Below are positions 8,323 through 12,796 of a DNA stretch of 53,365 nt, in pieces; positions within the stretch are counted from its first letter, which is position 1, and each line of letters starts with the position of its first letter. The notes beneath the pieces are model-generated. The model was not told the DNA's origin, made no database searches, and saw only the letters and a program-made list of their open reading frames with translations. Source of the DNA: an uncultured Chlamydiae bacterium (GTDB lineage: Bacteria > Chlamydiota > Chlamydiia > Chlamydiales > SM23-39); assembly GCA_937899275.1 (NCBI GenBank), contig CALBPE010000114.1, forward strand, positions 1 to 53,365. Reading direction: 5' to 3'. A program made the position numbers and the translations under genes.

Positions 8323-11300
8323 CGAATTCTTTTTCTAGTAATGTGCTGCCAGTACCTTCACGAAAGACATCTTCCTGCTCTTCTGTAATCACGCGCATAT
8401 CTTCTCTAGAATGTAAAATTCTTGGGCGGATAAAAAATACAATATTATTGATTGTATCGCTACGAGACATAGAAGAAAATGCTGAGCCGATAAACGGGAT
8501 GCCGCCTAAACAAGGTACAGCAGAGGTCTGTCTTCTTTTAAGCACATCGACAAGGCCGCTTAAAACCAAGAAGCTTTCATTCGGCACATGGACGGTTGTA
8601 TCTAACGTAGTTTTTGTCGTTGTGATGCCGCTTAATCTACCTGTTTGTGTGTTGGTATTGAGCGTTTCGCCGGCTGCATCGGTGGGATCGACAGAATTTT
8701 CAATATTGATTGCGAGGGAAATGACATCAGAATTTCCAATAACGGGAGTGATGGTCAGATTAAGACCAATATCGCGGTATTCGATATTCGATGTTTGAAA
8801 GATGCCTGCACTTGTACTCGAGTTGAGGTTTTGCAAAACAGAGCCGGTATAAGGGATGTTTCTTCCTACAAAAAGAGACGAGGTTTTGTTGTCTTGCGCT
8901 ATGATTTTTGGCGTGAGAAGAATCGCTGTCTCTTCATCTTGCTGCAAAGCGCGTAGAAGAGAGCCTAACGTGAAAAAAGAGCGCCCCTTATGTGTGATCA
9001 CATTACCAATCACCCCTAAATCAAAACCTGGAGAAATAAAGGGAATATTCGCTGGGTTGGGGGAGTTCGAAGGGTTGACAGCGCTAAGCTCTTTTCCAAA
9101 GGTTCCATCTGTTCCACCTGCACCGAAATTGCCTGTAGAGTAACCAAAGCTGCCTCGGTAGTCTCCTTTACTTCCCCAGTCTAAGCCAAAATCAAGCATA
9201 TTGTTTAGCGTCGTTTGAATCGCTAATACTTCAATGAAGACCTGTTTTAAAGGAACGTCAAGGTTTTTGATCAGCTCTTTTAAACGGGTAAGGGTTTGTT
9301 GATCGCCAGTAACTAAAAGAGAGTTTGTGATCTCCAACCACTGAATAGAGCGGATGGCATCGAGAAGGCTTGCATTGACTTTGCTATTGGATTTTGCAAG
9401 GTCTTTTCCAATGCTTTGTAGCGCCGCTTGTAGATCAGAGCCTTTATGGTACTGCAGCTTATAGACAAGAAATGAGGTATTATCGATAGGCTGTATTTCT
9501 GAGGTTTGTCCCGCGCGCTCTCCTGAAGGAACATCAATTGTGCCAATCAGCTGCTTGGTTTTTCCTAACGATTCTTCAGATCCTGTAAATACGAGAGATT
9601 TTGTTGCGGGTATGTATTTAGCAGAAAATAAAGAAGCGTATAACCCTGGATCAGATAAGCCGCTATCTTTTAAATGATCGGCAAAACTTTTCAAGAGTTT
9701 TTCTAATTCAGGGCCTGTTTTGAATTCAGGTTTATAGATAAAAAACTTGGATGGAGGCGTTTCTTCTCCCAGTCCAGAAACGTCAAATTTCATGACGAGG
9801 GTCTTCGCTTTTTCTAGCGCAGACTCAGGCCCGGTAAATACCAAAGAGTTGGTATCTTTTACATGTTTCATGCTTTGCAGGGTTTTGACAAGCTGCTTAT
9901 CGTAATTTTTACTTTTTTTCAGGTCCTGGATGACGCCATCAATTGCTTGGATAACGCGGCTGCTACTTGCATTTTTCAACTTATAGACAAGAAAAGAGGT
10001 TTTGCCGATACGCTGAATTGCGGCATCTTTTGATCCAGGTATATCGAGCTCTTTGATGATCGCGCCGATTTTTTGTAACGAGCTAGGCGCTCCTGTAAAG
10101 ACAAGAGAGCGGGTTTTTTCGCTATATTGCATGCTCTGGATGGCTTGGATAAGTCCGGAATCGATCAAGCCGCCTTCTTTTAAACTTTTGGCGACATCAA
10201 GAAGAGCTGTTTGCAGCATTTCTGGAGACATGTGCTGTGGTTTGTACATGAAAAAATCGCTGGCTTCATCTTTAGCGGTTTTTGGATGCGCCACATCAAA
10301 TTCTGCAATGAGTTTTTTTACCTCTTCAATACCGGTTGGTGGCCCGATTAACACAAGGGAGTTCGTAGCTTTAATCCATTTAAGATTATCGATGACCTCT
10401 AAAGCCTGCGCATTTCTAGCTGCAGCTTTCCGCATATTTTGAGCAAAAGACTCCAAAGCTTTTTCAATGACATCGCCTTTTTTATGCTTTAGCTTATATA
10501 CAAAGTACGATTCTCCTACTTGAGCGCTTGGCATGTCATATGATGCGATCAACGACTGGATCGTTTTTAATGCAGGCTCCTCACCAGAAAACATGAAGGA
10601 AGCCGAGTTATCAATCCACTTCATCGAGCGGATGGCTTGGTATAGTCTTTCTTGCTTTTGATCTTCTTGATCGAGGTTGCTGGCGATTTGATCGAGGTAC
10701 TTTTCTACCATTTTGCGGCTGACATTTTTCACCTGAATTAAAACAAAGGTGGGTTTGTCTTTATACGCTGTGGGATTGTCGATTTCCTCTGCCATTTTCT
10801 GCAGTTTTGCAAGATCGGGTTTAGGTCCTGTAAATAAAAACGAGTGGGACTGTTGGATCCATTTCATCGAAGAGATGGCTTGTAGAAGAGGTTTTTCTAC
10901 TGCATTTTCTTTTGCAAGGTTGGATTGTAGTTGTTTGAAATACTCTTCAAAACGTTCTTTAGAGATGTACTGCAAGTGGTGAAGAAAAAAGGTTTGGTGT
11001 GTAGCAAAAGCAGAATTTGGCGTGTCGATGGTTTGTAAAAGGCCATCGATTTTTTGCAGCACAGGAGGCGTGCCTGTAAATAAAATAGAGCCTGTAGATG
11101 CAATCCACTTCATGTCTTTGATGCTTTCTAATACATTGGGATCAGAAAAGCCTGACGCTTTCAGCTGTTTGCCATATTCTTTCATTGCTTGGACGATTTT
11201 TTCTCCAGAAAGATGCTGCGGCTGATAGGCTAAAAACTGGGACTCTTTGCCAGCAGGTCTTGCGACATCGATCAAAGAAAGCATTTCTTTGATTTTTGGG

Positions 11301-12796: not shown

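Follow-up and report, generated by a model that had tools for sequence, protein, structure and literature searches.

A window of 53,365 nucleotides (nt) from an uncultured Chlamydiae bacterium (assembly GCA_937899275.1, contig CALBPE010000114.1; the window is the whole stretch of DNA analysed here) carries the gene of a 1504-amino-acid (aa) protein which, judged from its sequence and gene neighbourhood, can be assigned as the secretin belonging to a chlamydial injectisome, or type III secretion system (T3SS), cluster. The special feature of this secretin is a tract of 11 consecutive units between the N2 domain and the pore, and these units are ring-building domains of the Secretin_N, or N2/N3, type. 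As the probable, though by no means assured, reading we favour a T3SS secretin descended from the GspD type of the type II secretion system (T2SS), in which an N2/N3-like domain was amplified to 11 copies, the resulting rings were stacked, and a neighbouring P-like protein was lengthened in step.

Motif scanning and alignment place the tract at residues 271–1187 (window positions 9236–11986), where the units U1 to U11, of 80–91 aa each, share the pattern of a [FY][FL]xYK strand, a helix, K[WY]I, an SLxFTG strand and LxxLDVP. An earlier note, made from the letters of the DNA, had put the tract at 9242–11983, which is exactly residues 272–1185 of the 1504-aa open reading frame (ORF), and had described 11 tandem units of about 83 aa with a common architecture, preceded by a signal peptide, an N0-like domain and two further modules, and followed by a secretin pore. 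This layout was borne out in every part, the two modules being N1 and N2 (Table 1). With a pore domain (PF00263), an N0 domain (PF21305) and N domains (PF03958), the protein has the set of domains that defines the secretin superfamily. The linkers between units do not exceed 9 residues and sum to 20 residues over the tract, and the protein identity of unit against unit is 17–39%. A hidden Markov model (HMM) built from the window's units returns 11 near-full-length, non-overlapping matches (E 1e-27 to 1e-32), which, as a self-match, show the register of the units and not their significance.

The earlier note had proposed a Pfam domain count and the fold prediction of single modules as checks, and both came out in its favour. 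Secretin_N scores 257.6 bits over the whole protein, in 8 stretches; scanned singly, 10 of the 11 units match it almost end to end (E 3e-13 to 5e-3), as do, at E ≤ 0.01, 11 of the 13 modules obtained when N1 and N2 are counted in. A profile of these 13 modules finds GspD among PDB sequences at E 2.7e-18, and aligns end to end with both N2 (171–241) and N3 (244–324) of E. coli K12 GspD (PDB 5wq7). An AlphaFold2 (AF2) monomer model, calculated for residues 845–1504 with 71 homologs and covering four modules, gives each of them the order beta-alpha-alpha'-beta-beta-alpha, that is, the ring-building fold plus one additional short helix, with block values of the predicted local distance difference test (pLDDT) of 84–96. 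In a Foldseek search the model matched T2SS GspD best (E 1e-24 to 1e-22), followed by InvG (about 2e-17), and the pores of PilQ and pIV were matched as well. The placement of the domains relative to each other is uninformative in this model, given a predicted template-modelling score (pTM) of 0.43 and a root-mean-square deviation (rmsd) of about 27 Å to assembled GspD, and its superposition on GspD was not used for geometry.

Two other explanations bear on these data. The repeat number might be an artefact of assembly, or the gene a pseudogene, and at least one window gene, mreB, is apparently frameshifted, so that sequence errors do exist in this contig. The secretin ORF, however, is intact; Tandem Repeats Finder reported no tandem DNA array in the gene, in which direct DNA repeats extend over no more than 45 nt at up to 73% identity, and repeats diverged to this degree exclude collapse or expansion during assembly. 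On an independent metagenome scaffold from ENA (L081, ERZ23487535) the same protein is encoded without any difference, by a gene 99.97% identical to the window's over its whole length, with two mismatches and no gaps, and the two closest metagenome-assembled genomes (MAGs; L001 and L002) hold 1502-aa orthologs with 11 modules. On the divergence of the units, the absence of DNA repeats able to mislead an assembler, and the gapless independent scaffold, an artefact was ruled out, and we consider the probability of this explanation vanishingly small. The other explanation concerns the machine. The genes of the locus lie on one strand, in the order cdsD...sctN-sctO-P-sctQ, a 226-nt gap, and the secretin, and all of these same-strand neighbours belong to the T3SS; the same arrangement was seen in 41 related loci that were resolved in full, as well as in Simkania negevensis Z and the loci L085, L088 and L089, and in the window and more than 40 loci the gaps are as short as 19–310 nt. 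This operon-like context supports the claim of an injectisome secretin made in the earlier note. The label SctC that the note had attached to it stood by the T3SS locus but not by the family models: the protein passed the GspD equivalog TIGR02517 (437 bits against a cutoff of 351.35), and failed both TIGR02516 for SctC (105.5 bits against 238.45) and NF011873 (53.5 against 524). The best PDB sequence matches are T2SS secretins, the fold matches likewise favour GspD, and some sources label homologs GspD, all of which would suit a T2SS secretin that merely adjoins the sct genes. Against this, the GspD-model score is inflated because of repeated N-domain matches, a scan of 26 window ORFs turned up no T2SS gene, and Chlamydia trachomatis CdsC, compared over residues 531–921, has the same motif at the junction of the last N domain with the pore, SIQWLQVNNS...DLPPKQV at residues of about 560–597, against SIQWLEITNS...DVPLKQVF here (DVPLKQV at 1181). 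Furthermore, a T2SS-like secretin of independent recruitment is found in all chlamydial T3SSs (Abby and Rocha 2012, PMC3459982), and CdsC has likewise been called T2SS-like (Nans et al. 2015, PMC4682100). Because of this published origin a GspD-like sequence in a T3SS context is no contradiction, and failure at the SctC cutoffs is to be expected if the secretin was independently recruited from a T2SS-type ancestor (PMC3459982). On synteny, window gene content and published phylogeny, the assignment to a T2SS only was rejected; we regard it as very improbable.

As an injectisome secretin, the window protein is no singular oddity but one ordinary representative of a large clade that is under-annotated, so that the peculiarity of this genome implied by the earlier note did not hold. 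Among 5.8 billion proteins searched, 149 homologs reached E ≤ 1e-10; the best 120 of them, with modules counted by the HMM of the window's units, comprise 1075–2266 aa and 6–21 modules with a mode of 8–9, which puts the 11 modules of the window in mid-range, and protein length follows approximately 663 + 78 × modules (r 0.98). A scan of one genome per species gave 337 matching stretches, the best 80 of which come from MAGs labelled Chlamydiota, Parachlamydiales, Simkaniaceae, Anoxychlamydiales, or uninformatively (a few 'Verrucomicrobia'); the 67 complete genes among these 80 hold 6–14 modules, and the pattern used would miss the Chlamydiaceae because CdsC reads QWLQVNNS. In an exhaustive HMMER search with the module profile, covering 1.84 billion representatives and returning 432 proteins at E ≤ 1e-30, chlamydial-type proteins reached up to 24 matched stretches (2368 aa). 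The cultured S. negevensis Z encodes a member of 1768 aa with 14 modules (SNE_A20110, CCB89888.1), annotated as 'hypothetical protein' or 'General secretion pathway protein D'. Modules 7–11, beside the pore, are positionally conserved across the homologs, and changes in copy number are concentrated on the pore-distal side, where the orthology runs 5-5-5-5, 4-4-4-4 and 2-2-2 of like modules point to local tandem duplication. Not all of these secretins lie beside sctNOPQ, as is seen for the protein P0033 and in locus L087, and the contig of another homolog, P0051, stops short of its P gene. Upstream of the 15-module secretin of L087 stands a 525-aa protein (8079–9656) with weak N0 and Secretin_N matches and an intimin/invasin-type domain (PF11924, IAT_beta), an unusual fusion. 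The literature searched for giant or multi-module secretins of chlamydiae or Planctomycetes-Verrucomicrobia-Chlamydiae (PVC) bacteria yielded no description of this architecture, and both its spread through the clade and its coupling to a ruler-like protein appear to be undescribed.

One of the closest systems studied is CdsC (CT674) of C. trachomatis, which has the same neighbourhood, sctN-O-P-Q followed by the secretin, and a T2SS-like pore as here. CdsC, given in the earlier note as about 920 aa, has 921 aa (PMC4682100), and its last N domain ends at about residue 591, against 1187 in the window protein, which is thus larger than the studied SctC proteins, as had been claimed (1504 aa vs 921 for CdsC and 562–607 for the classical ones). 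CdsC has been described as the largest T3SS secretin, in an elongated basal body of 34 nm (PMC4682100), and features a unique hydrophilic N-terminal domain of 250 residues (PMC4682100), whereas here N0 follows from residue 37 directly after the signal peptide; the extra mass consists of 11 Secretin_N modules between N2 and the pore, unlike the N-terminal domain described for CdsC. The GspD proteins of E. coli K12 (5wq7), enterotoxigenic E. coli (5zdh) and V. cholerae (5wq8) provide the best sequence and fold matches and the same N0-N1-N2-N3-pore plan; GspD has one N3, whereas the N2/N3-type domain occurs 11 more times here, and the context is a T3SS and not gspC-M. InvG, YscC and MxiD have the same role and occupy the same position in the machine, with a pore and ring-building N domains (Foldseek E about 2e-17), but they possess N0-N1-N3 only, InvG matches in sequence at 2e-5, and TIGR02516, as described, is missed by the window protein; classical and chlamydial injectisome secretins were recruited independently (Abby and Rocha, PMC3459982). 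The closest functional precedent is PilQ from Thermus thermophilus, in which stacked N0–N5 domains (b-a-b-b-a) form a 350 Å channel that takes up most of a periplasm of about 70 nm. PilQ has 757 aa and 6 N domains, as opposed to 1504 aa and 14 here (N0, N1, N2 and the 11 units), and belongs to the type IV pilus (T4P) system; its expansion is probably independent. Its six N rings have been treated as exceptional (PMC5745081).

The P-like protein encoded between sctO and sctQ is a candidate needle-length ruler. Its length of 466 aa was given correctly in the earlier note, and the N-terminal part of about 330 aa, there called disordered, is of low hydrophobicity. Across the loci the protein varies from 315 to 700 aa, the variation residing N-terminal of a conserved C-terminal domain of about 125 aa, so that it has both the gene position and the variable-length spacer of a ruler. 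It resembles the SctP/YscP/FliK rulers in these two respects and in its conserved C-terminal globular domain, and differs from them in having no significant sequence or profile match and in occurring as two paralogs in some chlamydial loci. Weak matches to FliK (PF02120) were obtained for 6 of 41 homologs, with a best E of 0.033. A homolog search with the full-length protein gave only 6 proteins, and one with its 140-aa C-terminal fragment gave no scored candidate. An AF2 model of the P domain, calculated from 6 sequences, has a core (pLDDT 80–93) that superimposes on the PscP switch domain (5cuk) with TMt 0.50 and 3.3 Å, the best geometry among the top matches, at a Foldseek E of 0.37, which is not significant. 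The C. trachomatis gene at the same position encodes CdsP, of 283 aa, which has been treated as a tape measure (Nans 2015, PMC4682100). Simkania-type loci (L082, 3345–4040; L085, 6377–7033; L089, 6473–7105) hold a second, short P-like paralog of 210–231 aa between the long P-like gene and sctQ, whose conserved C-terminal domain is the same (E 5e-20 to 2e-37); of the two, only the long copy occurs in the window.

Early on it had been suggested, in the same note, that the long P-like protein may be co-adapted with the secretin, and this idea gained comparative support from the lengths of the two proteins. Over 41 loci in which the secretin, P-like and SctO genes are all complete, P-like length rises with module number (Pearson 0.65, p 4e-6, slope 24 aa per module), and the lengths of SctQ, SctO and the protein encoded downstream of the secretin show no such correlation. 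Independent contrasts, calculated on a rough neighbour-joining (NJ) tree of the pore domain, SctO and the SctQ C-terminus, gave r 0.72 (p 1.5e-7) with a slope of 23 aa per module, 27 contrasts being of the same sign and 7 of opposite sign. Five cases outside the sample followed the relation (r 0.99, slope 23.4, root-mean-square error (RMSE) 38 aa): a P-like length of 700 aa was observed and 704 predicted for 21 modules (L085), 611 and 560 for 15 modules (L088), 578 and 536 for the 14 modules of S. negevensis Z, 397 and 345 for 6 modules (L089), and 283 and 280 for C. trachomatis, whose 921-aa CdsC was entered as 3.3 length-equivalents derived from protein length only.

It can be rationalized that a GspD-type T2SS secretin gave rise to the chlamydial secretin, as for CdsC, and that old tandem duplications between N2 and the pore then raised the N2/N3-like domain to 11 copies. 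If each module formed one ring in the oligomer, as N domains do in the solved secretins, N0 and 13 N-type rings would be stacked, and the periplasmic tube would be roughly 30 nm longer than in C. trachomatis with its 34-nm basal body. A needle that starts at the inner-membrane base would have to traverse this longer tube, and for this reason the ruler-like P protein would have grown correspondingly, at about 23 residues for each module; the observed co-variation of module number and P-like length supports a basal body lengthened by stacked rings. The ruler constant is reportedly about 1.9 Å per residue, a value said to go back to work by Journet et al. in 2003, which Nans et al. cite. At this value 23 aa correspond to about 4.4 nm, in agreement with the about 4 nm per ring obtained by calibration on Thermus PilQ, which has six N rings and a pore in 350 Å (PMC5745081). 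Set against C. trachomatis, the window secretin is larger by about 7.7 module-equivalents (about +31 nm), and the P-like protein is longer by 183 residues (about +35 nm). These increments would fit a basal body near 60 nm with an exposed needle about as long as that of Chlamydia. The inner-membrane ring protein CdsD has about 617 aa in loci with 11 and with 15 modules, and at least 573 aa in a 6-module locus that ends within it; since CdsD does not scale with the modules, the secretin would be the variable spanning element.

Several observations weigh against stacked rings measured by a co-evolving ruler. We know of no report of a basal body of about 60 nm, and the AF2 monomer, with the pTM and rmsd given above, provides no direct evidence of rings or stacking. 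The window copy of the P-like protein has no Pfam match, a profile of the P C-terminal domain found nothing among PDB sequences at E ≤ 10, an hhalign comparison with a CdsP sequence derived by optical character recognition gave an uninformative probability of 3.8%, and the match to PscP falls short of significance, so that the P-like protein is only a candidate for a ruler of the substrate specificity switch (T3S4) kind; the second, short paralog in some loci complicates orthology in addition. The coupling itself is noisy (residual standard deviation 52 aa), and one clade (L015, L016 and L050) combines 10 modules with a P protein of 324–327 aa, about 115 aa under the trend, and the space between sctO and sctQ would not admit a longer ORF there. 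P length also tracks the secretin N-terminal region (rho 0.52), the linkers (0.41) and SctO (0.48), so that some lineage-wide drift in length is possible, and the C. trachomatis point, as noted, is based on protein length only.

On these grounds the correlation of modules and ruler might be non-functional, the product of a lineage-wide tendency of repetitive and low-complexity proteins to become longer or shorter; the weak correlation with SctO and with non-repeat parts of the secretin fits such a tendency, and the contrasts were drawn on a rough tree of three protein segments. The lack of any correlation with SctQ or with the downstream TPR-like protein speaks against it, as do the contrasts, which strengthen the signal, and the out-of-sample predictions, which hold over 6–21 modules, and we judge this explanation decidedly unlikely. 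Somewhat more weight, though still that of an unlikely alternative, may be given to modules that act as a compressible or extensible tether, or 'spring', or that are partly folded back or decorate the channel, with a gain in length well below one ring per module. The basal body of C. trachomatis contracts by 4–5 nm on host contact, which has been put down to periplasmic domains joined by linkers (Nans 2015, PMC4682100), the monomer model has no fixed geometry between modules, and both the noise of the ruler relation and the clade with 10 modules and a short P protein fit a looser coupling. On the other hand, linkers of at most 9 aa leave little slack, 23 aa per module amount to one ring height on two independent calibrations, and stacked N domains are seen in every secretin solved (PMC5745081). 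Stacked rings with a ruler lengthened in step thus remain the preferred reading. More tentatively, at somewhat short of an even chance, the module number might serve in evolution as a dial of length, at about 4 nm per ring and with a ruler co-evolving at about 23 residues per ring, such that basal bodies would measure about 35 nm in Chlamydia, about 60 nm in this organism and roughly 100 nm in relatives with 21–24 modules, the trait possibly having been inherited from a multi-module GspD lineage.

If the modules stack, the injectisomes of environmental chlamydiae would exceed the length of any imaged so far by a factor of up to about three, which would raise questions of envelope geometry, of the assembly of rod and needle through a long tube, and of gating. 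The co-variation of module number and ruler length would then constitute a natural experiment on what a T3SS ruler measures, and it implies that the measurement runs from the base through the secretin and is not confined to the exposed needle. The number of N-domain rings is usually taken as fixed at three or four, and here a clade has 8 to about 26 N-type domains, hidden as a T3SS component by labels such as 'hypothetical', 'GspD' and 'secretin N-terminal domain-containing'.

Table 1. Features of the injectisome locus and of its secretin in the window (residue numbers refer to the 1504-aa secretin).
Feature	Window position	Strand	Evidence and remarks
Downstream partner, 322 aa	7354..8322	(-)	Conserved; 41-nt overlap with the end of the secretin gene; N-terminus of signal or lipobox-like type (FFTTSC); weak TPR; hydrophobic helices at the C-terminus
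Secretin gene, 1504 aa, assigned as functional SctC/CdsC of chlamydial T3SS, GspD-type by sequence	8282..12796	(-)	Intact ORF; Pfam N0 + Secretin_N + Secretin; TIGR02517 437 bits; best PDB sequence match T2SS GspD 5wln, 1e-38
C-terminal two-helix tail, probably S-domain-like	8285..8407	(-)	AF2 helices, model residues 620–638 and 641–653
Secretin pore domain, residues 1283–1461; barrel region from about residue 1188	8414..8950	(-)	PF00263 E 8.6e-33, profile positions 1–168 of 169; Foldseek top matches GspD 5zdh, 6i1x, 5wq7, E 1e-24 to 1e-22
Module U11, residues 1106–1187, N3 equivalent adjoining pore	9236..9481	(-)	Secretin_N E 2.9e-13; invariant in all homologs, always best-conserved unit
Module U10, residues 1015–1105	9482..9754	(-)	Secretin_N E 4.4e-4; AF2 block pLDDT 84–93
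Module U9, residues 932–1014	9755..10003	(-)	Secretin_N E 7.6e-8; AF2 block pLDDT 84–96
Module U8, residues 845–931	10004..10264	(-)	Secretin_N E 9.1e-6; AF2 block pLDDT 88–96
Module U7, residues 761–844	10265..10516	(-)	Secretin_N E 4.9e-6; first of five positionally conserved modules (positional orthology 7–11 across homologs)
Module U6, residues 681–760	10517..10756	(-)	Most divergent; Secretin_N E 0.15; 39% identity to U5, same motif pattern
Module U5, residues 600–680	10757..10999	(-)	Secretin_N E 4.5e-3
Module U4, residues 518–599	11000..11245	(-)	Secretin_N E 9.2e-5
Module U3, residues 437–517	11246..11488	(-)	Secretin_N E 1.4e-3
Module U2, residues 354–436	11489..11737	(-)	Secretin_N E 1.7e-6
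Module U1, residues 271–353	11738..11986	(-)	Unit HMM; Secretin_N E 9.6e-4
N2 domain, residues about 196–270	11987..12211	(-)	Inside 3ezj N0-N1-N2 alignment (query 34–259, GspD); shorter than the 11 units, without alpha1' insertion
N1 domain, residues about 121–195	12212..12436	(-)	Best single Secretin_N stretch 134–191; best per-module E-value 4e-14
N0 domain, residues 37–105	12482..12688	(-)	PF21305 type_II_gspD_N0, E 6e-10; aligns to GspD/XcpQ N0-N1 crystal structures 4e9j, 3ezj
Signal peptide, about residues 1–18, MKKILFVFLSFVVPCLAA	12743..12796	(-)	Read by eye from the sequence, without predictor
SctQ	13023..14123	(-)	TIGR02551 110 bits against cutoff 100.8; FliMN_C
P-like protein, 466 aa, candidate needle-length ruler	14120..15520	(-)	Between SctO and SctQ; low-complexity spacer of variable length, flanked by a conserved N-terminus and a conserved C-terminal domain of ~125 aa
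SctO	15541..16050	(-)	PF16789 YscO-like, E 1e-39
SctN ATPase	16057..17379	(-)	ATP-synt_ab + T3SS_ATPase_C
CdsD/SctD inner-membrane ring protein, 616 aa	19024..20874	(-)	Yop-YscD_cpl, FHA, CdsD_PD1, CdsD_PD2, CdsD_C (the three CdsD domains being specific to chlamydiae)

The gene downstream of the secretin encodes a conserved partner, a homolog of which follows the secretin gene in 78 of 81 loci, as a rule directly, and also in S. negevensis (E 1e-91); a YidD-like gene (window 6963–7469) comes next after it. The 322-aa protein is a candidate pilotin or assembly partner. Pilotins of T4P systems are TPR lipoproteins. The T3SS operons of C. trachomatis encode no pilotin (Nans 2015, PMC4682100). On the other side of the secretin gene, the distance to sctQ is either short or 1–3.5 kb across the loci, and a Pkn5-like Ser/Thr kinase occupies it in 24 of the 28 loci with a large gap, and likewise in S. 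negevensis Z. A Pkn5-like kinase gene also lies between sctQ and the secretin in C. trachomatis; there is none in the window's gap (12797–13022), nor was a kinase homolog found in the 30 kb of the window that were searched. The two assemblies of this locus differ in sctQ and not in the secretin: the scaffold L081 (1571–1582) is without about 65 nt of the window's sctQ (13386–13462), and its gene calls split SctQ into products of 238 and 92 aa.

Extreme amplification of N domains is also found in non-chlamydial T2SS secretins. The exhaustive HMMER search returned 36 representative proteins of 2,679–5,532 aa with 24–46 module-profile matches (P0224–P0290; loci L083, 3650–14824, and L084, 8001–23834), which have an N0-N2-like start in 34 of 36 cases and a C-terminal secretin pore in 32 of 36. 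The one locus measured, L083, has a GC content of 70%. The sole giant with a readable context, P0227 (5277 aa), stands at the end of a T2SS operon of gspE-F-G-H-J-K and then a pilM-like gene. As the chlamydial SctC is T2SS-derived, the multi-module trait may pre-date recruitment into the T3SS. A literature search on giant secretins found nothing relevant.

Elsewhere in the window, mreB is apparently split, at 36216–37019 and 37080–37295 (+): an ORF of 267 aa corresponds to positions 2–233 of 327 of the MreB profile, and a separate ORF of 71 aa to the next segment, with an aberrant tail. Since MreB is important for chlamydial division, a sequence error is likelier than a pseudogene. A HipA-like kinase (HipA_C and Couple_hipA) is encoded at 38662–39855 (+), about 26 kb from the T3SS cluster.

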